Notes: generated from the letters alone by a model not told the origin. Positions 114 to 11,512 are shown, counted from the stretch's first letter. The stretch: 60,294 nt of DNA from Candidatus Hydrothermota bacterium (GCA_021158525.1 JAGGUL010000079.1:1-60294), one strand, 5' to 3'. Numbers and translations: made by a program.

Positions 114-142
114 TTGACAATCTGCCGCTATAACTTTAATAT
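114..142 (+). promoter_or_regulatory. Sigma70-type promoter, leaderless geometry for tlpA
   Basis: TTGACA(114-119)-17 bp-TAATAT(137-142), 7 nt before ATG 150; no Shine-Dalgarno. Confidence 0.6.
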
Positions 143-149
143 GCACTCC

Positions 150-695
150 ATGATTTTCCGTCATGGGCTTTTTGCGCTTCTCGCCGTCGTCCTTTTTGTC
201 AATCCTTTAGCGGCAGAAAAACACAAGAAAGCTCCCACCTTCGCCCTCGAAGACCTTAAAGGCAATGAAATCGTCCTGGACAGCGTGCTATCCGGCGGCC
301 CCGTCATAATCGATTTCTGGGCGACATGGTGTAAGTCCTGCGATAAAGCTCTTGACATGCTTCAATCGCTTTACGCCACTTATAGAGACAGCGGATTGAG
401 TGTGCTTGCTATCACTGTGGATTCTCCGGACAAGATCTCGCGGATTAAACCTCTCGCCTCTTCCCGGAAGTGGGAATTTCCCATACTCATGGATCCCGAG
501 AAGAAGGTAAAAACTCTATACAGAGTCATGGTGCTCCCCACGCTGTTTGTGCTGAATCGAGATGGCGAAATCGTGTACCACCATGTTGGTTACAATCCGA
601 GAGAACGATCGAAGCTCGAGGAAGTCCTGCTTCCTCTGTTCAGGACCGCTTCGGATTCCTCCGAAGCAGAAAGTAAAGCGAGCGGAAATCCCTGA
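150..695 (+). CDS. TlpA/ResA-family thiol:disulfide oxidoreductase, exported
   Basis: Signal peptide, APTFALEDLKG, DFWATWCKSC, cis-Pro VLPTLF; start moved from TTG 114 (the -35 box) to ATG 150. Confidence 0.9.
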   Translation: MIFRHGLFALLAVVLFVNPLAAEKHKKAPTFALEDLKGNEIVLDSVLSGGPVIIDFWATWCKSCDKALDMLQSLYATYRDSGLSVLAITVDSPDKISRIKPLASSRKWEFPILMDPEKKVKTLYRVMVLPTLFVLNRDGEIVYHHVGYNPRERSKLEEVLLPLFRTASDSSEAESKASGNP

Positions 696-751
696 ATTTC
701 TGTCAATGCCGTCTGGAAAGAAAACCAAATTCAACTGAAAGGAGGTTTTCT

Positions 752-2591
752 ATGAGAAAAGTTTTAGGTATGGTCGTGATTTTGTTGACAATAAACTCTG
801 CCAGACTGATGGCAGCTGACCGGTATGTTCTCGCTGAGATGGTCACAAATACGGGCTGTCCATATTGTCCTCCCGCCGACAATCAGCTCGATTATCTGGG
901 GGAGTATTTTGGGGACAGGCTCGTCGTCATCAGATACCACGCCTGGTGGCCCTCTTCGGGCGATCCCTTTTACAATGCAAATACAAGCGAAAATATTGCG
1001 AGAATCCAGTATTACAACGTGACTTACACGCCTCACTGCTTCTTCGACGGCATTGTGGATGGAACGTCCAATTACAGCACCTGGCAGATGATGATTCAGA
1101 ACAGGATGAACGAGCCGAGCCCCCTCACCATCGACCTCGATGTGGATTACAACCCTCAGTCGAGGGAAGGCTCTGTTATAGCGACCATCTATAATGAAGA
1201 CGACTCCACTCATAACAATGTGAAACTCCGCTTCTGCATAACGGAATCGGATATAGAATACACGGCTCCCAATGGGGAGACGGAACACAACTACGTGATG
1301 AGAGACTTCTTTCCCGACGTCAACGGAATAACCGTCGACATCCCGGCTGGTGAAACTATAGTTGACACGGCCTATTTCACCATTTCGCCATCCTGGGAGG
1401 ACGGTAACTGCCAGGTCGTCGTTTTCGTTCAGAACGATGGGACCAGGGAGATCTATCAGTCAGCCTGGGCGTGGGTCAATCCCAACCCGGCCCTCGCTTT
1501 CAGCAGGTTCAGGGTGGAAGACGATAACAGCGGCGATGGCGATTATCTTCCGGAACCCGGAGAGGAAGTGAATCTCTACGTCGCATTGAAAAACACCGGG
1601 AGGGAGGATGCGACGAGCGCCAACGCGACGATCTATACCGATGACGAGTACTTCACTGTGACGACGGCCTCTGCCAGCTACGGAGCCATTCCAATAGGGG
1701 GCAGCACCGAGCCCACGACTCCATTCAGCATTCAGATCTCAAGCAGCGCTCCCTACGGATATATGGGCTGGATAAACATCGACATGGAGCTCCCCCAACG
1801 GCGTCACTTACACCGACAGTTTCCTCGTCCTGATCGATTCCACTGCAGGCTTTTTCGATGACTGTGAATCGGGGGAGCAGTTCTGGCAGCACGCAGGCTT
1901 CTCCGATTTCTGGCATCTCACGGAGTTGAGGTGCGTATCCCCCACTCACAGCTGGTACAACGGAATAGAGGAATCGAACGTCTACAACAACAACGCTAAC
2001 TGCGCCCTTTATATGCCCGACTACATCCTGATAGGACGGGATGCCCTCCTGACTTTCAATCACTGGTACGCGATACAGGAGAACGCTGATTTCGCCTATC
2101 TCGAGATCGACAACGGACACGGATGGGAGGTCTACGGAACCTGGACCGGAACCAGCGACGGATGGGAGGCAGAGACCCTGGATCTCTCGGGATACGCCGG
2201 CTCACCCCTGAAAATGCGCTTCCACTTCACCTCTGACGGGTACGGTGTCGACGAGGGGTGGTACATCGACGATATCAGTTTTGGAGTGTCCACCTCGGTG
2301 GAGGAGAACCCCGGTGCGGGCAATGATAGAAAGCCAGTAACGGCGACAATAGGGGGGCGTGACCTCACGATCGCCTTTGAGCTCGACAATCCGGCCCTGC
2401 TTGACCTCTCTATCTACGATGTATCGGGAAGGCCAGTCCTCAAGAAACAGCTCCACGGAAAGGAAGGCACGAACAGGCTCCATCTCGGTGAGATGATCAC
2501 GGGGAAAGGGCATTCCGGCGTTTACTTCGTCATTATAAAGAAGGGCAATGAAACCCTGCTGTCCCGGAAACTGATCCTGTTCAACCACTGA
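752..2591 (+). pseudogene. Omp28-related thioredoxin-fold protein with Ig-like, jelly-roll and T9SS/FlgD-like C-terminal domains; split by a +1 frameshift at C5 1792-1796
   Basis: SD AAAGGAGG; signal peptide; TNTGCPYCP, YHAWWP, HNYVMRD. Removing one C gives IDMELPNGVTYTDSFLV...FFDDCESG in frame with ORF 1926-2591 (EGWYIDD, IYDVSGR, SGVYFV). Confidence 0.8.
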
Positions 2592-2594
2592 TCG

Positions 2595-3719
2595 ATGAGA
2601 ATCAAAGCCTTCATTTTTCTCACCTTACTTCTCATAGTGGGGAGTTGCATAAAGAGGCCCGAGGAGGAAGAGATCCTCCCCCAGGGCGGAAATCCAGTCG
2701 TCGCCGAGTGTTTTACCAATATAGGCTGCGTCCACTGCCCTGAGGCTGAGAGCATCCTCGCGTCATACCTTCAGGAAGACACGAACCTCCTGGTCATAAA
2801 CTATCACGTCGGAATACCTCTCGGAAACGATCCCTTTTACCTGGCCGACTCGGCAGAGATTAACCGGATCCTGGAATTCTACTTTCTCGAGGGACTGCAG
2901 GGAACTCCCGGAATCGTCTTCAACGGCACAATTCGATACGAGGGTGTGAGCGCCGCGCCGATCTGGCCGGAGATAATCGACTCGCTGCACGATCTGGAGC
3001 GTGCTGTCACGATGACCGGGGAAGGCGAGTACTCCCCCGATACGCGTTCCGGTTGGATAAAGGTGTATGTCTCGGGCGACATCGAGTCGGGCCTCTATCT
3101 GAAGGGGCTTCTCCTTGAATCCGACATAGAGTATCAGGCTCCAAACGGCGATACTCTCTACGACCACCTCGTGAGAGATATAATCCCCGATCCTACGGGG
3201 ATACCCGTAGATAGCGAGGGGACCTACAGATTTGATTTCTCCCTTAGCGGGGAAATCGAAGCCGAAAACTCTGAGATAGCCGTTATAATTCAGGATGCAT
3301 CGACGAAATTCATCGAGTGGGCGATCCGTTTCCCCATCTCCGAACTCCCCGAGCCCCAACCCGGTTATTCCTTTGAATTCCACGTGAGCGATACCCTCCT
3401 TTACGTCCCCGTCAACCTGCTCACGACGACCAGGCTGTACCTCGAGAACACGGGAACGCTCGATGACATCTATCTGATCGAGGTGATCAGGGACTCACTG
3501 GCAGACCCTCAGTGGTCCGTGAGCCTCTGCCGTGAAGTCTGCCTGCCCTATCTCACTGCCTATGATACTATTCCTGCGGGAGAAAGGGATACGAGCTATA
3601 CCATCGATTTCATCCACTGGAATGAGACCGACCCGCCGGGCTTCGTCATCGTGAGAATCACGTCTCAGGGAGATACATCGCTCGTCGATTCATCAAAAAT
3701 ATGGGTGTATCCGCAATGA
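2595..3719 (+). CDS. Omp28-related outer-membrane lipoprotein (CxxC) with C-terminal Ig-like domain
   Basis: Lipobox VGSC; FTNIGCVHCP; NYH...DPFY; GTPGIVFNG; DHLVRD; C-terminal WSVSLCREVCLP. Confidence 0.8.
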   Translation: MRIKAFIFLTLLLIVGSCIKRPEEEEILPQGGNPVVAECFTNIGCVHCPEAESILASYLQEDTNLLVINYHVGIPLGNDPFYLADSAEINRILEFYFLEGLQGTPGIVFNGTIRYEGVSAAPIWPEIIDSLHDLERAVTMTGEGEYSPDTRSGWIKVYVSGDIESGLYLKGLLLESDIEYQAPNGDTLYDHLVRDIIPDPTGIPVDSEGTYRFDFSLSGEIEAENSEIAVIIQDASTKFIEWAIRFPISELPEPQPGYSFEFHVSDTLLYVPVNLLTTTRLYLENTGTLDDIYLIEVIRDSLADPQWSVSLCREVCLPYLTAYDTIPAGERDTSYTIDFIHWNETDPPGFVIVRITSQGDTSLVDSSKIWVYPQ

Positions 3720-5082
3720 TAGGCATACTCGCTCTTTTGTTAGCGGCTCAACTGAGCGTAAATGCTTCGAATTTTCTTGAACTGAGGCTCCTCAGAGATG
3801 GCCGGGAAAGGCTAATCGACGAGCTCTCCTTCGACCTCTTCTATGATAACTTCAAGGCAGGCTTCACCTTCGCGACCTATCAGCCCGAGACCCTCCTCGA
3901 GTTCCAGAGGCGCTCTGAGGTATTGAAAAAGTATATTGAATACAGAAGCGGCCCCTTGACGGCCCGGGGCGGATATTTCTATTCCACCTTCGGACACGGC
4001 CTGCTCCTTTATGCCGCCAGAGATGAAGTTCTGCAGATGGACAGGTTTGTCGACGGGGCCGATCTGAGGCTGAAACTCAGGGGAATCAAAGGGGAATTCC
4101 TCGTGGGCAAGCCGAGGGTCTTCGAAGAGTATCGCCTCCGGGAGGACTCTCTTTCACTCCTTCAGGCGGTCGACCTCGCCGCCAGCCCCTTGAGCTTCCT
4201 GAAAGTGGGTGGTTCTTTCCTCCGTGCCTCCGATTCCCTCCGATACCTGAGGAGCGACTTTCTCGCCGGAAGGACAGAACTATCGGTCGGACCTCTGAAC
4301 CTGTATTTCGAATATGCCAAAAGATGGGGATACAACAGGATGCTCAAAAAGAAAAAGAACGGGGCCGCCGACTACCTCTCCCTGAGCTATTCGGGGGCCG
4401 GGCTCGGTCTGACTTTCGAGTTCCGGGATTACTGGCTCTTCGGCAAAGAATATGGAATCCCGCCCTCCCTTTCCAAAAACGGGTTCTACCTGAACTCGGC
4501 GATGGACGAGAGGGGCTTTTCGCTAAAACTCGACCTCGGGTTAATTGAGGGCTTCGACATAAATCTCCACGGATCACACCTGTTTTCCACCGAGCATTTC
4601 GGGCCCAAATCGGATCTCAAGGAACTGGGCGGTAAAGCGGACGGCTATGTAGGCCCACTGGAATACACGCTCTCGTTGTCCTATATGAATTTTGAGGGAG
4701 CAAAAGACGCCCTCGGACTTGACAGGCGCAGGGAAATCGACCCCGAGGCAACCTTGATCCTGAGGCTTTCAGACCTTTATTCTATCAGCCTCTATGGCCG
4801 CAACAGAATGAGAAAAGACGATGACAAAAAATACAGCGATATCGACGCTTATCTGACTTTCTCCCTTTTCTCCATAATTGACCTCACTCTGGCCGGCTCG
4901 AAGCGCACCGGCGACCTCGAGGGAAAGTGGGGGGGATAGAGCTTTTCCTTCATGCGGGCGGAATGCTCGATATGATCCTCACCTATGGCTCGGAGAGAGG
5001 AGATTTCGTCTGCTCGGGCGGAATATGCCGATATGAACCCGAATTCAAGGGGTTCAAGGCACAGGCAGTCATAAACTTCTAA
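3716..5082 (+). pseudogene. DUF6029-like outer-membrane beta-barrel; frameshift at G7 4929-4935
   Basis: ATGA overlap with the upstream stop; GYFYSTFGHGLLL. One extra G gives WGGIELF...GDFVCSGGICRYEPEFKGFKAQAVINF-stop with a terminal Phe and a TAATG overlap with the next gene. Confidence 0.75.
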
Positions 5083-6731
5083 TGCTAAAAGAGGAACTGA
5101 AAAAAGAGAGAAAGAGGCGTCTTATTGCCTTCTGGGTTTCGTTCTTCCTGCCAGGTGTGGGCCAGCTCACCAGGAAGAGGATCGGCTCGGGCCTCTTTTT
5201 TATTTTAGTGACCGTCCTTTCGCTTCTATTTCTGAAGCGAATCTGGAAGGGCTGGAGCCCGGCAGTCATAAGCCTCTTCATAGGTTACTCTCTTCTGTGG
5301 GTATTGAACCTCCTGGACGCTTACAAAGGGCCTGTATATCACAAACCGCCCTGCAGGAGGGCCTGCCCTGCAGACATCGACGTTCCCGGCTACACAGAAC
5401 TGATCCGCCGGGACAGATACTCTGAGGCCCTGGAGCTGATAGCTTTGAAGGCTCCTCTGCCAGGTGTCCTCGGCTACGTCTGTCTGGCCCCCTGCGAAGA
5501 GAAATGCTCGAGGACGGGAATGGAGGGCAGCGTCCTGATTCGCCACCTCAAGCTGAAAGCGGCCGTCAAGGGCGAGCTCACCTTCGAAGTCACTCAGCAA
5601 AAGAAGCATCACAGGGTGGCTGTAATCGGGAGCGGACCCGCAGGCCTGACCGCAGCCCATTACCTTGCCGAGAAAGGCTATAAAGTCACTATCTTCGAGA
5701 GACAGGAGAAACTGGGGGGAATGTTGCGTTACGGGATACCATCCTACCGACTTCCCAGGGAGATGCTCGATCTGGAGATCGACAGGATAACGAAGGACAG
5801 GATCGAGGTGAAAACCGGCGTGAAAATCGGGGAGGACATCTCTTACGCCGAGCTGGAAAAGAATTTCGATGCCGTCATAGCGGCTCCCGGCGATGCCCTC
5901 TCCAGGATGCTGAACTTAGAGGGGATAGATCTCAAGGGAGTACACTACGCCCTCGAATTCCTCGAAAAAGCCAATCGCGGCGAGAAAGTTCCGATAGGCG
6001 AGAAGGTGGTCGTCATAGGAGGCGGCAACGTGGCCGTGGACTGCGCCAAAACCTCGTTGAGGCTGGGGGCCCGTTCCGTGAAGATGGTGGCGCTCGAGAC
6101 GCGCGACCTGTCTTCCCCCGACAGGCTACCCGCCAGCGACAGGGAAATAGAGGAAGTGGAAGAAGAGGGAGTCGAGATACTGGGGTCCCTTGGGCCCAGA
6201 AAAATCGTAGGCGAAAACGGCCGGGTAAAGGCCCTCGAGACCATCAAGTGCACCCGCGTTTACGACGAGAAGGGAAGATTTGCGCCTCAGTTCGACGACA
6301 AAGCCGAGACACCTGTCATCGAGGCGGATTCTATAATAATCGCCATTGGTCAGAAACCCGACATCTCCTTCCTGCCGGAGGACGTGAGATTTCTGAAGAA
6401 CTTCAAAACCACGAGAAAAGGCCTCTTTTTCGTTCCAGGGTCCCTGATGGTGGCTGAAGCCATAGGCAGGGGCAGGAAGGCAGCTGAACAGGTCGACAGG
6501 TATTTCAAATCTCCCCTGAGGCGATTTCTGGACCAGCTCTTTTCCTTCGAACTCTACATCAAACCCGCCAGGCTCGGACGACCCGAGCCGGCCGATCCCG
6601 CCGCGGTCAGGAAAGAAAATCCGGAGGAGAGGATCAAAGATTTCAGGACGATAGAAAAGCCTTTAAGTGACGAGGAGGCTAAGAACGAAGCCCGTAGATG
6701 TTTACAGTGTCCTTTCCGATTTCGGGTCTGA
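5082..6731 (+). CDS. GltD/NfnB-like FAD, NAD(P)-binding Fe-S oxidoreductase with N-terminal membrane domain
   Basis: N-terminal hydrophobic segments (FFLPGVGQL); CRRACP and CLAPCEEKC Fe-S motifs; IGSGPAG; GGMLRYGIP; IGGGNVAVD; C-terminal EARRCLQC. Confidence 0.85.
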   Translation: MLKEELKKERKRRLIAFWVSFFLPGVGQLTRKRIGSGLFFILVTVLSLLFLKRIWKGWSPAVISLFIGYSLLWVLNLLDAYKGPVYHKPPCRRACPADIDVPGYTELIRRDRYSEALELIALKAPLPGVLGYVCLAPCEEKCSRTGMEGSVLIRHLKLKAAVKGELTFEVTQQKKHHRVAVIGSGPAGLTAAHYLAEKGYKVTIFERQEKLGGMLRYGIPSYRLPREMLDLEIDRITKDRIEVKTGVKIGEDISYAELEKNFDAVIAAPGDALSRMLNLEGIDLKGVHYALEFLEKANRGEKVPIGEKVVVIGGGNVAVDCAKTSLRLGARSVKMVALETRDLSSPDRLPASDREIEEVEEEGVEILGSLGPRKIVGENGRVKALETIKCTRVYDEKGRFAPQFDDKAETPVIEADSIIIAIGQKPDISFLPEDVRFLKNFKTTRKGLFFVPGSLMVAEAIGRGRKAAEQVDRYFKSPLRRFLDQLFSFELYIKPARLGRPEPADPAAVRKENPEERIKDFRTIEKPLSDEEAKNEARRCLQCPFRFRV

Positions 6732-7551
6732 GCATATCGAGGGGCGTTGAAAACCTTATCGCCCCCTGAGGACAGGCCGACTGGCACTTTCCGCACCTTA
6801 TGCAATCAAGATCCGATGCGTTCTCATAAATCCTGATCTCCATGGGGCACACATTGTAGCAGATATCGCATTTAGTGCACTTGCTCTTGTCCACATACAT
6901 CCTCAACACGCTCAACTTGTTGAAAATAGAGAAGATGGCTCCCACGGGACACGCCACCCTGCAGAAGGGCCTTCTGGTCGAGAGAGAGAGCACGACGAAG
7001 AATATGAGTATGCCGTATTTGACGTAAAAATGGGTCGTGAGGATCTCAAGGAGGGACGAACCGAGCGACTGAACCGGATCCCAGGAGAGAAGCGGTATCC
7101 CGGCCTCGATGGTTCCGGCAGGGCAGAACTTACAGAACCATGGTTCGAGCAAAACGATGGGCAGTATTATGGCCAGGACGAGGACCACGTACTTCAGGTA
7201 GGTGAAGATCCTGGGGATCCTGAACTTATAGGAGGGTATCTTGTAGAGAAGTTCCTGGAAAAGTCCAAAGGGGCAGACCCAGCCGCATGTCGCCCTCCCC
7301 ACCGATGCGCCCACGAGCCCGAAGAAACCGAGGATGTAAAAGGGAATCTGTCGAACTGCGAGGAAATGCTGGAAGCTCCCCATCGGGCAGGCGAACCTGG
7401 AAAGGGGACAGGAATAGCAATTCAACGCCGGCACGACGAATCTCTTGGTGAGGCCCTGATATATCGCCTGGCCGGTGAGAACGCCCTTGTAGTAGCTGTC
7501 AATCGCTAAAAAACTCAGTATCTGAAAAAGTCTTCTTATCCTCGCAGTCAT
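6679..7551 (-). CDS. NapH/MauN-like membrane 4Fe-4S binding protein
   Basis: LNCYSCP, CPMG, GRATCGWVCPFG, FCKFCPAG, RPFCRVACPVG, two CxxCxxCxxxCP motifs, TM helices. Confidence 0.88.
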   Translation of the reverse strand: MTARIRRLFQILSFLAIDSYYKGVLTGQAIYQGLTKRFVVPALNCYSCPLSRFACPMGSFQHFLAVRQIPFYILGFFGLVGASVGRATCGWVCPFGLFQELLYKIPSYKFRIPRIFTYLKYVVLVLAIILPIVLLEPWFCKFCPAGTIEAGIPLLSWDPVQSLGSSLLEILTTHFYVKYGILIFFVVLSLSTRRPFCRVACPVGAIFSIFNKLSVLRMYVDKSKCTKCDICYNVCPMEIRIYENASDLDCIRCGKCQSACPQGAIRFSTPLDMLRPEIGKDTVNIYGLRS

Positions 7552-7704
7552 CTATTCGATCCCGACGCAGGAAAGACAGATCATGGAGGCATTCAGCTCT
7601 GTCTCTTCGAAATCGCCGACTTTGGCCCCCTTTATTATGAGGCCAGTCGACAGAGCAACGAGCAGCGCCAGCCCCGCCACAAATAAAAATGACCTGATGC
7701 GCAT
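7552..7704 (-). CDS. Small membrane protein with C-terminal CxxC (CD1871A-like), 50 aa
   Basis: One TM helix and C-terminal ICLSCVGIE; its stop abuts the start of the 4Fe-4S gene. Confidence 0.75.
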   Translation of the reverse strand: MRIRSFLFVAGLALLVALSTGLIIKGAKVGDFEETELNASMICLSCVGIE

Positions 7705-7710
7705 GTTCTG

Positions 7711-7739
7711 ATTTTGAAAGCAATCACCCGCCCTGTCAA
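7711..7739 (-). promoter_or_regulatory. Sigma70-type promoter, leaderless geometry
   Basis: TTGACA-17-CAAAAT, 6 nt before ATG 7704; no SD. Confidence 0.55.
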
Positions 7740-7966
7740 GGGTTTCGCCCAGTCGTGATATAGGGCACGCTTCGGCCTCCATACAATTAAAAGACCAACT
7801 CCGGGATGTAAACAGTGTAAACAAATCATTTTGAATCAAGTTTTGCCATGAAGAATCTAAATTACAACTGCATTAACTTAAATATCATTGCATTACTAAA
7901 TTACTCCCGGGGGTTCTGATTATTGCAAATAGCACCTCTACTGAATCTTCCGCTCTTTAAAGATTT

Positions 7967-10339
7967 TTATCTCTTATGTAATTCATCTGAGAAAAATTTA
8001 AGTTCACAAGGAATAGGAGGAGGACCGCCATAAAAAAGATATTTAGCTAGATATATCAGGTCTGCTATGGTAACATCACAATCACCATTGACATCACCCG
8101 AAAGTAATGGGGTAGGAGCAGGGCCGCCACTATAAAGATACTTAAAAAGATAAACCAAATCTGTATGATTAACCAAATTGTCTCTGTTACAATCGCCTGG
8201 AATTTCAATAAATTCATTCTTAATCCAAATAGTGTCTGTAAAAGTCCCAGTGAATCCAGAATCTACAAGAATTGTTAAATAACCGTTGTTTTGAAGCCAA
8301 TCAGTAAGGATTCTATAACATGAATGCGCAGAATGGGATACTCCTCGATGTAGAAAAACTTCGTCATGCTGAGGATCTGCGATCTCAATTCCCAAATCGT
8401 ATAATTTTTCTTCTCCCCAGTTATCAATTTGAATGCCAACACTTGGAATAATTTCACATAGTGTAGATTCCGCTGAATCAACTTCCAAATTTTTTAGATT
8501 ATACACGATTTCGGTGCCTACATTCGAAACTATTGTGCACAAATGATAGCATTTAGCTTCAACATCAGGATTTATTAAAGCTACCGTTTTCCCATCACCC
8601 TTATAGTGTATTTTTTCTTTCTGCGAACTGTCAACGTCAAAGCGAAAACAGTGAAAAGATGTCCCTTCAGGAGTAAACAAACTAAAATAGAAAGCGCTAT
8701 CTCTTATATGAGTATACTCACATAGCCAATCTTCATCTTGGAGCATGAGCGGGTAGCCAAGAATTGCAATGCAGGAGTCAAGAAAATAGTAATTTAAATA
8801 TGTGGATTGATAGAAAGCTTCCTCCGCGGGATAAGCTATAATTCCGATATTTTGTCCTCCAAGATCTATATACATTTCAGGTGTAGATAAATATTCATCA
8901 ACAGGCTCCATCAAGAAAAGTCCTCTCCCGGTATCCCCTCCCCATATATAGGACCAAGAATTAAGTATTGTATCTACTCTTACACGAATTGGTATATCAG
9001 ATTGCACCGTATCGGGATATCCAGGGCAACAATAAACTGTATCAGTTCCAGGCCAGATATTGTCATATACCCAAATATATTTTATGTGAGAGCTATCAGG
9101 AGAGATATTTGTAGTAATCTTGACAGGATTAACAAAATGTGGAATACTTGGTGGGGAGGGCCATATACACAGTGTTCGGTGAATCTTCTGATCGCTATTC
9201 AGCATTTCAATAATTTTAGTTATCGTTTGATTCGGGGTTACGAGAATATATTGTTCAATCAAGGAGTTGATATGTTGCCATCCAAATCCATGAGTGTAGT
9301 ACATATTGGCTACTTGACGCGCACATGTCATTGGACAAGAATCACCAACTGGAACATCAAAAAGTCTGTAATACCCTGGGAAAAACATCTCTAAATTTAG
9401 CAAATTATCAAAAAATAAATAGCATGAAGTAGCCATACCCAGGCATGAACCCCACCAGTTAGTAGAATCAGGATATTGGGATGGTGGATGGTTTACTAAT
9501 CGGGATAGACACCACCTAAAAACAGCATATGGCCTGTAAATTACCCTTCCCGGAGGGGGATCAAAATAACATTGATCCTCGCCGAAAGCTGCAACCCAAA
9601 GAGTCCAACTTGGGAAATCAGAATTTCTTATGTTAAATATGGATGTTAAACGACGAAATTGCCTGTTGTATTCGCTGTAATTCTCCCAGCACTGATTAGG
9701 CCACATATATATGAAATAAGAATCAGGATCTGCATGAACAAAGTTGTCTAAATAATAATTAGGGAATCCCCAGCCATCTCTATTTATCTGAAACGTATAG
9801 ATTGTAAAAGCACTGTCACTTGTATCTGCTGGTTCCATATCATACGCATCATAGATTCTAATCAAACAACTGTCAGAGTCATAAATCCATGGTACTTCCC
9901 AAGTGTAAGAACAACTGGATGCAGGAACTTCTGCTATAAAATCCCATGTAACACCGCAGTCAACTGAGTACTCTATTCTAACATTCCCGGGGATGTTTAC
10001 AAAATTCCAAATAATATCGTGCTCAGAGCCCATGTACCAATATTCTCCTCCATTCGGCGAAATTAAAGTTAGATCTTCTGGAAGTGGCCTAAATTGTCCT
10101 ATTGGAGATGATTGGCCCAAAGAGAAATTCAGTTTATAGACGCTCTTTAGCAGTTCTCCCCCCTCATCCAGAGTCTGTGTTTTAAAATGATAACCTGAGA
10201 TTCCAGTTCGTGTTGACCGTTCTGAAATTGTATAAATATAACCCCAGTGTCCAATTGTGTTTGCAAAAGTCGTGGTGGAATACACTAGAAAAATGCTGAA
10301 TAAAACATACCTGAGAATTTTAAAGAAATTTATCTTCAT
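7967..10339 (-). CDS. Secreted multidomain protein: Ig-like (SPNGGE) domain, putative papain-like Cys-His-Asp domain, dockerin type I
   Basis: SD GGAGG; signal peptide; LISPNGGEYW; DGWGFPN...GSCLGMA...PHFVNP...WVYDN; duplicated GDCNRD...DLVYL and GDVNGD...DLIYL. Confidence 0.7.
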   Translation of the reverse strand: MKINFFKILRYVLFSIFLVYSTTTFANTIGHWGYIYTISERSTRTGISGYHFKTQTLDEGGELLKSVYKLNFSLGQSSPIGQFRPLPEDLTLISPNGGEYWYMGSEHDIIWNFVNIPGNVRIEYSVDCGVTWDFIAEVPASSCSYTWEVPWIYDSDSCLIRIYDAYDMEPADTSDSAFTIYTFQINRDGWGFPNYYLDNFVHADPDSYFIYMWPNQCWENYSEYNRQFRRLTSIFNIRNSDFPSWTLWVAAFGEDQCYFDPPPGRVIYRPYAVFRWCLSRLVNHPPSQYPDSTNWWGSCLGMATSCYLFFDNLLNLEMFFPGYYRLFDVPVGDSCPMTCARQVANMYYTHGFGWQHINSLIEQYILVTPNQTITKIIEMLNSDQKIHRTLCIWPSPPSIPHFVNPVKITTNISPDSSHIKYIWVYDNIWPGTDTVYCCPGYPDTVQSDIPIRVRVDTILNSWSYIWGGDTGRGLFLMEPVDEYLSTPEMYIDLGGQNIGIIAYPAEEAFYQSTYLNYYFLDSCIAILGYPLMLQDEDWLCEYTHIRDSAFYFSLFTPEGTSFHCFRFDVDSSQKEKIHYKGDGKTVALINPDVEAKCYHLCTIVSNVGTEIVYNLKNLEVDSAESTLCEIIPSVGIQIDNWGEEKLYDLGIEIADPQHDEVFLHRGVSHSAHSCYRILTDWLQNNGYLTILVDSGFTGTFTDTIWIKNEFIEIPGDCNRDNLVNHTDLVYLFKYLYSGGPAPTPLLSGDVNGDCDVTIADLIYLAKYLFYGGPPPIPCELKFFSDELHKR

Positions 10340-10372
10340 GAAATTCCTCCCTTAACAACTTACTACGGCCAT

Positions 10373-11215
10373 TCATTGATTTTTAAGAATGCGCACACGA
10401 ACATAATTCCATCGCTTGTGTTCAGGCATAACTACTGCATTGTCATCAGATGCACGATGTACAGTGATTGAACTATCAGTGAGATCATACCACTCAAGAC
10501 CTACCTCATACCATACTAAATTGTATCGAAATGATGCAGTTCCAAAATTAGCTCGATGGATAGGGAAACCATTTTGGTTAGGACTACCTTCGACACAAAC
10601 TATATACTTACTTATATCCCCACCTAAGTTGTGGTGAAGTACTCTTGCCTGCCCTGCAGAGATATGTACCCATCCAGAATTGTAGTCAAACTTAAATTTT
10701 ATGGGGGCATTAACTCGCAAAGTATCGGAAATATAAGCTTTGCCTTCTACATCAAGATCATAGGCTGGTAAATTTTTCCCTATCCCTACCTTACCTCCGG
10801 TGTAATACAGGTCGCCGTTGTTCTTTTTTGTCCAGTCATAATCAGTGAATGCATAGGCTACACTCGTTATCCTTGTTCTGGGGAAAACCTGCCCTGGTGG
10901 TGTATTTATCGTTACTTCAAGCCAGCGATTAGCGCTGTTGAAAGTCACCTCGGGAATCTCGGCAATTGAGCCTAAAAGTACGTTGAACACACCCGAATCA
11001 ACCAGAACTGAATCATGATCCTCAGACCAAAGAAGAGTTCCGTTAGTCGAATCATCGTAGATCTTAAACGTGATATCAAAAGTTCCATGTAGCGGATTCC
11101 CCTCATTGTCCGTTAGATAACCCTGGAAATTGATCATTTGAGGCACAACACTCTGAGCTGCCAATACTGCTTGCAGTGCAAGTATTATTACTCCACACAT
11201 TGCGTAACTCCTCAT
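10373..11215 (-). CDS. Secreted protein with PQMINFQGYLTD N-terminal domain, VGIG fibre-like segment and uncharacterised C-terminal domain
   Basis: SD GAGGAGG before ATG 11215; signal peptide; GKVGIG...LDVEG; YNSGW...HNLGGD...RVRI. Confidence 0.7.
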   Translation of the reverse strand: MRSYAMCGVIILALQAVLAAQSVVPQMINFQGYLTDNEGNPLHGTFDITFKIYDDSTNGTLLWSEDHDSVLVDSGVFNVLLGSIAEIPEVTFNSANRWLEVTINTPPGQVFPRTRITSVAYAFTDYDWTKKNNGDLYYTGGKVGIGKNLPAYDLDVEGKAYISDTLRVNAPIKFKFDYNSGWVHISAGQARVLHHNLGGDISKYIVCVEGSPNQNGFPIHRANFGTASFRYNLVWYEVGLEWYDLTDSSITVHRASDDNAVVMPEHKRWNYVRVRILKNQ

Positions 11216-11323
11216 TTGACACCTCCTCGTTTGAGCTTGCAAAACACCAAATGTACATACAAAATGCTTTTTGCGATCTCCATATAACTGTGACACTTCA
11301 ATTTAAAAAGGGAAGCTGCAATC

Positions 11324-11512
11324 TTATTTCAGGGGAAATTTACAGGTCCTTTTGAGAAATGATAGACCAGAAATGGTGAAAAAGTAACATCCGTGGATAG
11401 CATCATTCCTGATATAGCTACTACAAAGAACCGTTTGAGAGAAATATGAAAGGTAGGAAAATACTGAACGACTGTAAATAGACCCGCGACATCGACATAT
11501 CCCCTGAAATAA
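11324..11512. repeat. Nested inverted repeat (13-bp outer and 8-bp inner arms)
   Basis: TTATTTCAGGGGA 11324-11336 / TCCCCTGAAATAA 11500-11512; ATTTACAG 11338-11345 / CTGTAAAT 11472-11479. Confidence 0.75.

Follow-up and report, generated by a model that had tools for sequence, protein, structure and literature searches.

The beginning of a 60,294-nucleotide (nt) stretch of DNA from Candidatus Hydrothermota bacterium (GCA_021158525.1, JAGGUL010000079.1:1-60294; this whole stretch, at its full length, is referred to here as the window) raises the question of how reducing power might be brought from the cytoplasm to thiol-redox proteins of the outer envelope. A preliminary description, made from the sequence alone, had noted seven contiguous genes in two convergent units, each with redox-type Cys motifs, and had proposed that they form one functional system, a thiol-redox relay from cytoplasm to cell surface that operates without DsbD/CcdA. 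Open reading frame (ORF) listing and Pfam/NCBIfam family scans, the basis for gene calls in the window, found all seven genes and their Cys motifs within 114-7704 (Table 1) and bear out the two-unit layout; two frameshifts had been missed. The combined evidence strongly supports a functional link between the seven genes, which probably encode one envelope redox system; its two units in the window have counterparts in other WOR-3 lineages that make up a single operon.

The host is an uncultured vent-sediment bacterium whose genome is 97.1% complete. On the plus strand little or no DNA separates the genes: the first two junctions are gaps of 56 and 3 nt, and the next two are overlaps of 19 and 1 nt, the second overlap joining the stop of the DUF6029 gene to the start of the gene for the membrane-anchored flavoenzyme (TM-GltD; TM, transmembrane). 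On the minus strand the gene for the 50-amino-acid (aa) mini-protein, hereafter the peptide, lies directly upstream of the NapH-like gene with zero gap. The two units converge, and the 3' ends of the TM-GltD and NapH-like genes overlap by 53 nt. The G+C content of the cluster (53-56%) is normal for the genome (52.7%). Because the Cys motifs of the cluster are invariant in relatives, they are more than chance occurrences.

Table 1. Genes of the redox cluster in the window and of the co-directional operon at locus L144
Product	Locus	Coordinates	Strand	Motifs and domains
TlpA/ResA-like redoxin	Window	114/141-695	+	FWATWCKSC; N-terminal signal/anchor helix
Omp28/HBP35-like protein A	Window	752-2591	+	EMVTNTGCPYC; CARDB/MAM-like middle; type IX secretion system (T9SS) C-terminal sorting domain
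Omp28-like lipoprotein B	Window	2595-3719	+	Lipobox VGSC; CVHC
DUF6029 barrel	Window	3701-5082	+	PF19494; C-terminal end ...VCSGGICRYEPEF...INF
TM-GltD, membrane-anchored GltD/NfnB-like flavoenzyme	Window	5082-6731	+	Fer4_20 + Pyr_redox_2
NapH-like polyferredoxin	Window	6679-7551	-	Two Fer4_5 domains + 2x[4Fe-4S] domain
50-aa single-TM mini-protein (peptide)	Window	7552-7704	-	C-terminal end ICLSCVGIE
Omp28-like lipoprotein	L144	1883-2644		UxxC
TlpA	L144	2662-3201		
DUF6029	L144	3198-4625		
CxxC peptide	L144	4644-4793		
NapH-like protein	L144	4797-5588		
TM-GltD	L144	5578-7137		

Conservation of the cluster across the phylum

An alignment of the TM-GltD anchor, searched in one genome per species, returned 20 loci in records labelled candidate division WOR-3, Candidatus Stahlbacteria, 'Cloacimonadota' or uncultured. 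At locus L144 all parts are co-directional in six genes spanning ~5.3 kb, and the spacing of successive genes from TlpA to TM-GltD varies between an 18-nt gap and an 11-nt overlap. Full-length TM-GltD is encoded in 22 of the 31 genomes around the one carrying L144, and 20 of these 22 loci were mapped. In this operon lineage the peptide, NapH-like and TM-GltD genes are contiguous in 20/20 loci, with DUF6029 preceding the peptide gene in 18/20 (in one of these across a 1.9-kb insertion) and TlpA found in 17/20; one of the two loci lacking DUF6029 ends with its contig and the other has no match within 2.7 kb. Protein identities to L144 are 37-77%. The linkage in relatives on which the preliminary proposal of one functional system hinged is therefore found as a single co-directional operon in other WOR-3 lineages.

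The coordinates of their DsbD_TM matches show that the operon-lineage genomes belong to the same 272-genome phylum set in which the NapH-like gene occurs in 212 genomes; with the window TM-GltD as query, 24/272 match at E up to 1e-95. TM-GltD converging with peptide-NapH, as in the window, was seen in family f1 and also in G108 (f24), G256-258 (f39) and a record titled Hydromicrobium. Among 20 further families, sampled with one genome each and centred on the NapH orthologue, the full operon is present in f25 and f26, Omp28-TlpA-DUF6029-peptide-NapH without GltD in f28, peptide-NapH-GltD in f22, TlpA-peptide-NapH in f35, peptide-NapH convergent with TlpA-DUF6029 in f18, and a TM-anchor match only, beside NapH, in f37, while NapH occurs without any other part in 13 families. 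TM-GltD forms a bridge between the inner (NapH/peptide) and outer (TlpA-Omp28-DUF6029) modules in further families. Since the parts are found together in at least six orders or orientations, the association reflects functional coupling rather than inherited accident. Both modules can also exist alone.

Within the class, a sample of 41 genomes contained a PF19494 match in 30, and up to 20 kb around the match was taken from 29 relatives, onto which the window proteins were mapped by tblastn. A TlpA homologue adjoins DUF6029 in 23/29 of these loci (three of the six misses are contig ends) and an Omp28-like gene in 24/29. TM-GltD adjoins DUF6029 in 7/29, all from the window's own genus or f3, where it abuts or overlaps the DUF6029 stop; full-length TM-GltD is confined in the class sample to f1 and f3 (8 genomes), following DUF6029 in 8/8. 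The NapH-like gene adjoins DUF6029 in 1/29 (same genus), and the clear NapH orthologues (E <1e-70) of 16/41 class genomes lie away from DUF6029 except in the window's own genus.

Other neighbourhoods of these genes were also recorded. In f35 (L119-L121, L125) a unit of four genes ends with TM-GltD, the other three encoding a 416-aa protein with no Pfam match, a HIT-domain protein and a 141-aa protein of no family, and in f39 (L115-L117) a radical SAM gene overlaps the TM-GltD start. At L194 (f35), a distant pyridine-nucleotide-disulfide-oxidoreductase-like gene (9344-10219; 58 bits to TM-GltD 158-440) stands upstream of TlpA-peptide-NapH, and its product is possibly another cytoplasmic donor.

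Inner-membrane components

Membrane topology was derived from Kyte-Doolittle hydropathy and charge counts. TM-GltD matches Fer4_20 (PF14691, 1e-17) and Pyr_redox_2 (PF07992, 5.1e-29), its best curated NCBIfam model being PRK12771 (403.3 bits, cut-off 516; gltA and the GOGAT small subunit are also below their cut-offs), and its closest solved chains are 8oh5_C, 9bov_A, NfnA 9n5u_A and NfnI 5jca_L, with GltD likewise among its PDB relatives. After a K/R-rich start, strong helices at residues 34-52 and 60-78 make up a hairpin anchor, in which S..xPGxGQxxRxR and NxxDAxKGP are conserved and which would leave the catalytic domain, with two [4Fe-4S] clusters, FAD and NAD(P)H, on the cytoplasmic side. 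A variable linker of ~60 aa leads to a conserved C-terminal tail, ...EA.RCxxC (11/11 orthologues aligned; window 6700-6731), that may serve for docking or may itself be redox-active. The match to the larger fused PDB paralogues 8oh5_C and 9bov_A runs through this tail region. The same genome also encodes six to seven soluble GltD/NfnB paralogues that lack a membrane anchor.

The NapH-like protein carries two PF12801 stretches with CxxxCP motifs (4.5e-19) and a PF00037 domain (5.7e-13), and misses the curated cut-offs (TIGR02163, 74.2 bits vs 213; NapH NF007013, 66.6 vs 234). It has 17 invariant Cys, eight of them in the ferredoxin domain and the others at residues 45/48/55, 89/93, 140/143 and 197/201. 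Strong helices lie near 63-81, 122-140 and 170-188, and the loop 136-173 has 1 K+R vs 4 D+E, suggesting an arrangement in which the ferredoxin domain and Cys 89/93 and 197/201 face inward and Cys 45/48/55 and 140/143 outward. Neither the window cluster nor any of the 14 NapH loci that were compared contains NapG/NapA or mau genes, the search for nap genes having covered these loci only, and no NapH neighbour other than the peptide is common to f3, f6 and f2.

A 48-50-aa peptide ORF stands directly upstream of the NapH-like gene in 13/14 of the loci compared. It begins with MRIR in the window, continues with one hydrophobic helix and ends in an acidic CxxC tail, which is probably periplasmic given the positive N-terminus and the acidity of the tail. 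Residues G26, E34, N38, C43, S45, C46, G48 and E50 are invariant (13/13), giving the C-terminal pattern N..x(I/L)C(L/F)SC(I/V)G(I/L)E. The layout is similar to that of NCBIfam CD1871A_fam (NF040920), which the peptide matches at E 0.1 (12.5 bits vs a cut-off of 32; model positions 2-37 of 38); the name CD1871A was not found in the literature searched.

On hydropathy, the Cys motifs of TM-GltD, the NapH-like protein and the peptide fall on faces compatible with a relay, in agreement with what the preliminary description had required. Of the neighbouring pairs for which that description had called for complex prediction, the NapH-like protein and the peptide were modelled together with four 4Fe-4S clusters, giving a score of 0.33 against 0.00 for the best of three controls, with at least 94% contact agreement between runs and a partner predicted local distance difference test (pLDDT) value of at least 70. 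The mark for this score was passed by 58/80 solved complexes and 2/110 mismatched pairs, and passing scores no higher than 0.60 came from only 7/80 solved complexes and from both passing mismatches, in a calibration run under conditions unlike the prediction here, which used its own alignments and ligands. The model thus lends weak support to the pairing of the two proteins.

Outer-envelope components

The TlpA-like protein, whose likely start is the ATG at 141, matches AhpC-TSA (PF00578, 1.4e-24) and Redoxin (PF08534, 7.4e-18) and stays below the curated cut-offs for ResA (99.4 vs 170 bits), TlpA (37.3 vs 230) and DsbE (46.5 vs 123). A hydrophobic N-terminal segment at residues 5-23 indicates, by hydropathy only, that it is exported or anchored, and WCxxC is retained in all 20 orthologues aligned. 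A second TlpA-like gene, 37.5% identical, occurs elsewhere in the genome (G000 contig C103, 12412-12807).

Against Pfam Omp28 (PF11551, cut-off 34.9 bits) and NCBIfam NF033782 (cut-off 150), Omp28-like protein A scores 64.4 and 74 bits, respectively, and protein B 19 and 21.3 bits; of these only the Pfam score of A exceeds its cut-off. The C-terminal part of A matches the T9SS sorting domain TIGR04183 (33.7 bits vs a cut-off of 23), and the genome does encode a T9SS, with SprA at 385.7 bits summed and 92 matches to the C-terminal sorting domain; orthologues of A in f3 are 592-600 aa long. In protein B, C45 and C48 are invariant in 19/19 relatives, as is P105. In an AlphaFold2 (AF2) model of B from 19 sequences (pLDDT 88.5), residues 35-132 adopt a thioredoxin fold, after which come two beta-sandwich domains. 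The first strand spans 35-41, C45/C48 (CVHC) stand at the N-terminal end of the helix spanning 48-61, and P105 precedes strand 3 (106-109). Foldseek ranked HBP35 (5y1a; E 1.4e-11, TMt 0.60) first and DUF1223 (2axo) 19th, and a sequence search of the PDB gave nothing beyond E 0.22 to 2axo. By its predicted structure, Omp28-like B is a thioredoxin-fold CxxC protein of the HBP35/DUF1223-like type.

The DUF6029 protein matches PF19494 in its N-terminal (60.8 bits) and C-terminal (36.2 bits) parts (cut-off 27), and a C-x4-C-R motif is invariant in the 28/28 ORFs of relatives aligned. An intact orthologue (L038) modelled with AF2 from 26 sequences is all beta with ~24 barrel strands (pLDDT 91.8; predicted TM-score, pTM, 0.84) and has no plug domain of its own. 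Both invariant Cys sit in a small hairpin (426-437) between the last two strands, and because short and long connections alternate this hairpin would be in the last outside loop. By Foldseek the barrel most resembles FimD and PapC, ushers with 24 strands (TMq 0.57-0.61); further matches include TonB-dependent receptors, MtrB (rank 37, TMq 0.53) and the copper transporter OprC. A passage of PMC9603273 ties DUF6029 to Wzi-like polysaccharide barrels by HHpred and suggests a porin or export pore.

Probable selenocysteine in the Omp28-like lipoproteins of the operon lineage

The Omp28-like gene at L144 contains a single in-frame TGA exactly at the position of the first CxxC Cys of the window proteins. 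A TGA at this position, with the frame conserved beyond it, is present in 16/16 operon-lineage N-termini found (L144 and 15 among L158-L177), giving the motif E-x-F-T-x-D-x-U-x-x-C, where U stands for selenocysteine (Sec); the window's Omp28-like A and B carry Cys there, and A matches the NCBIfam 'Omp28-related selenoprotein' model NF045500 (4.9e-19). The operon-lineage lipoproteins are probably selenoproteins, and the exchange of Sec and Cys at the first CxxC position marks it as a catalytic redox residue. The hairpin following the TGA at L144 was no better than in shuffled sequences (z -1.14; 25/200 as good), and the literature searched contained no relevant link of Omp28 or WOR-3 with selenocysteine or selenoproteins.

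Relation to DsbD/CcdA

To our knowledge, all characterised reducing supplies to envelope thiol proteins run via DsbD/CcdA. DsbD/CcdA is absent from the window, as first reported, and DsbD_TM (PF02683), DsbB and VKOR gave no match in the whole 97.1%-complete genome, the DsbD_TM search being positive in 10/14 known genomes used as a control. The genome carrying L144 likewise has no DsbD_TM match. In the class sample of 41, 16 genomes have NapH only, 21 DsbD_TM only, four neither and none both, so that DsbD_TM is found in 0/16 genomes with a NapH orthologue vs 21/25 without, a split that involves few families whose members are kin and not independent.

The anti-correlation with dsbD/ccdA expected in the preliminary description therefore appears only in the window's own class, and it breaks down across the phylum and in the operon lineage. 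DsbD_TM was found in 146/272 phylum genomes, which together with NapH in 212/272 means that at least 86 genomes hold both. A strict replacement of CcdA by NapH/peptide was accordingly rejected as a general rule. Given its coexistence with CcdA phylum-wide, the system is not simply a CcdA substitute; it would be a dedicated supply.

Proposed route of reducing equivalents

The results above establish which genes are present, that their motifs are conserved, what folds their products have and how the genes are linked in operons of several lineages; the relay itself, in its individual electron-transfer steps, its direction of flow and its end use, is inferred. We lean towards a route from the cytoplasm into the envelope that runs from NAD(P)H through TM-GltD, the NapH-like protein, the peptide and TlpA to the Omp28/HBP35-like proteins and DUF6029. 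Electrons from NAD(P)H would enter at the cytoplasmic face through the FAD and two [4Fe-4S] clusters of TM-GltD and pass to the NapH-like protein, which would receive them at its cytoplasmic ferredoxin domain and whose Cys-ligated centres on both faces of the membrane domain could carry them across the inner membrane. These centres would then reduce the C-terminal CxxC of the peptide in the periplasm by passing electrons from iron-sulfur to a disulfide, as ferredoxin:thioredoxin reductase does, and the resulting dithiol would reduce the TlpA-type WCxxC protein. TlpA in turn may serve the thioredoxin-fold Omp28/HBP35-like proteins of the outer membrane, which would be, in the window, a lipoprotein and a T9SS-exported protein and, in other lineages, a selenoprotein lipoprotein with UxxC, and which would act jointly with the plug-less 24-strand DUF6029 barrel. 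The reducing power of the system would thus end at Cys- or Sec-bearing proteins of the outer envelope.

Several observations weigh against this route. The expected linkage across relatives, realised in the operon lineage, fails closer to the window: the NapH pair of the nearest other family, f3, lies apart from the cluster, and in most class relatives the TlpA-Omp28-DUF6029 module lacks TM-GltD. Families f4 and f7-f10 have the outer module without any NapH orthologue but with DsbD_TM, from which it follows that the outer module does not need this donor, and DsbD_TM is also present in 15/22 operon-bearing genomes of the L144 group (5/9 operon-less). Conversely, NapH/peptide stands without the other parts in 13/20 sampled families, and TM-GltD is also found in other contexts, with HIT-domain genes (f35), MatE (f18) or radical SAM (f39), those in f18 and f35 accounting for 8 genomes; the anchored flavoenzyme may serve more than one partner. 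The TM-GltD membrane anchor contains no Cys or His, and a PDB sequence search with the NapH-like protein matched its ferredoxin domain only, leaving the membrane domain without a solved relative. Two of the outer-membrane genes are frameshifted in this very strain.

A bolder reading, which we regard as doubtful, is that the cluster represents a third type of machine for thiol redox transfer through a bacterial envelope. In it an NAD(P)H-fed Fe-S membrane protein, with chemistry like that of ferredoxin:thioredoxin reductase set into the membrane, would reduce the mini-protein disulfide beyond the inner membrane and supply a 'porin-thioredoxin' conduit that brings reducing equivalents to the cell surface. 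By analogy, the plug-less 24-strand barrel and its Sec/Cys thioredoxin-fold lipoproteins might then play, with thiol/selenol chemistry, the part that the Mtr porin-cytochrome wire plays elsewhere, a comparison we make tentatively and do not expect to hold. A peptide fermenter, suggested earlier as the setting for such surface reduction, is nowhere indicated by the results.

Alternative explanations

A role in metal handling, though unlikely, is the alternative that fares best. The NapH-like protein would then be a metal-ion reductase like CcoG, the cbb3 oxidase assembly factor, the peptide a carrier of Cu(I) or another metal and the barrel a metal importer or exporter, with TlpA keeping metallochaperone thiols reduced. 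A CxxC on a short exposed tail often binds metal, CcoG (TIGR02745) is among the weak NCBIfam matches of the NapH-like protein (E 4.2e-6), and OprC is among the Foldseek matches of the barrel, where the similarity is generic to barrels and the plugs and TonB boxes of the OprC type are absent. Family scans of the window and L144 found no metal-transport ATPase or chaperone family in the operon, and the Omp28-like proteins, as predicted thioredoxin folds with CxxC at the canonical catalytic site and Sec in place of the first Cys, are typical of redox rather than of metal binding.

The same components could in principle run in reverse as the disulfide-forming pathway of an anaerobe, with TlpA and the Omp28-like proteins oxidising envelope or secreted proteins and electrons flowing inward by way of the peptide and the NapH-like Fe-S centres to the flavoenzyme and a cytoplasmic acceptor. 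The missing DsbB/VKOR in this genome would fit such a pathway, as would the export of ~90 T9SS cargo proteins and the invariant Cys pair in the predicted outside loop of the barrel; the CVHC of Omp28-like B also resembles the CPHC of DsbA-type proteins. Going by textbook midpoint potentials, protein dithiols would have to give up electrons to NAD(P)+ against the thermodynamic gradient, and Sec at the attacking position is typical of reductases. Every characterised TlpA/ResA-type WCxxC protein known to us is a reductant. Together these points make reverse flow quite unlikely.

That the modules are adjacent by chance, with TlpA-Omp28-DUF6029 self-contained (possibly a porin or export pore, the role that a passage of PMC9603273 suggests for DUF6029, which it likens to Wzi-like barrels via HHpred) and NapH/peptide and TM-GltD serving other processes, would agree with the convergent units of the window, a layout shared by the same genus only among the 29 class loci, and with the frequent solitary occurrence of NapH/peptide, but is very improbable and already largely refuted by the single operon conserved in 18/20 loci of another lineage at 37-77% identity and by the at least six partial arrangements that retain parts together in other families.

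Comparison with known systems

The proposed inward-to-outward route shares with the DsbD/CcdA-fed pathways (TlpA, ResA, CcmG and the PilB/Msr N-domain) an exported WCxxC protein that needs electrons from across the inner membrane. It differs in that the genome lacks DsbD_TM, in that TlpA is accompanied by a NapH-like Fe-S protein, a CxxC peptide and a flavoenzyme where no thioredoxin-fed, thiol-only membrane relay was seen, and in that its clients would be thioredoxin-fold proteins of the outer membrane and a barrel. NapH-like proteins have been proposed as modular transmembrane electron carriers in a passage of PMC8238504, and features of the NapH/NosR/PceC type (PF12801, CxxxCP, a cytoplasmic 2x[4Fe-4S] domain and varied operons) recur in the window protein. 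Unlike those proteins it has no FMN-binding domain by Pfam and its extracytoplasmic partner would be a CxxC mini-protein, and in comparison with NapH/MauN its N-terminal extension adds NCYxCP...CP, outside the TIGR02163 match (residues 73-268).

TM-GltD has the Fer4_20 and FAD/NAD(P) domains of the NfnB/GltD small-subunit family, from which it is set apart by a two-helix anchor, the RCxxC tail and the absence of an adjacent GltB/NfnA partner gene. The best structural match of Omp28-like B, HBP35 of Porphyromonas gingivalis (5y1a), likewise has a thioredoxin-like CxxC domain, and its T9SS C-terminal domain for surface attachment is paralleled in Omp28-like A; sequence identity to Omp28-like B is 16%, and HBP35 has been studied as a haem-binding protein. 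The title of PMC2907840 credits HBP35 with thioredoxin activity. MtrCAB and LptD/LptE offer an analogy only, in that a large plug-less barrel is encoded with a periplasmic redox protein, a lipoprotein and a surface protein. In contrast to MtrCAB, the cluster proteins contain no CxxCH haem motif, the chemistry would be that of thiols or selenols, and the best barrel fold is FimD/PapC.

No account of such a system was found in the literature searched, which did not extend to the supplementary NapH-like cluster lists of PMC8238504, and this route of reducing power to the outer envelope seems new with respect to described systems. If the relay is real, it would constitute a new, conserved solution to the supply of envelope thiols, in which an NAD(P)H flavoenzyme and an Fe-S membrane protein act together with a 50-aa CxxC peptide. 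It would further give a function to a widespread orphan pair whose NapH-like member occurs in 212/272 phylum genomes and whose peptide carries no annotation, assign roles to DUF6029 and to the Omp28/HBP35-like surface thioredoxins including the selenoprotein form, and bear on how a surface-exposed thioredoxin such as HBP35 is recharged. The operon at L144 is compact and therefore testable by heterologous expression although the phylum is uncultured.

Frameshifts in two outer-membrane genes

As assembled, the gene for Omp28-like A is interrupted at 1792-1796, where a C5 run has one C too many, and the DUF6029 gene at 4929-4935, where a G7 run is one G short, which places the conserved C-terminus of DUF6029 in another frame. 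Both frameshifts thus coincide with homopolymers, and both affected genes encode surface or outer-membrane proteins. Window 1500-5300 was compared with contigs from four public runs. Those of run X1, an independent contig set that possibly derives from the source sample, agree with the window and contain both frameshifts, while those of X5, X6 and X7, from three other sediment/vent metagenome studies, have one base fewer at 1792 and one more at 4928, restoring both frames; one further X6 contig has an A behind 4932 instead. These changes indicate that close relatives have both genes intact. The other strains also read A for G at 4933, which interrupts the G run. A pure assembly error of the window was rejected because the X1 contig set, which may come from the source sample, shows the same two frameshifts. 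In the window strain the two genes are either truly broken, phase-variable or misread at homopolymers.

Sequence adjoining the cluster

Directly after the peptide gene the G+C content of the window falls to 37-41% over ~7500-11500, compared with 52.7% for the genome. This stretch includes, on the minus strand, a 790-aa ORF (7967-10339) whose C-terminus appears dockerin-like by eye and a 307-aa ORF (10373-11296), and it may be foreign DNA.

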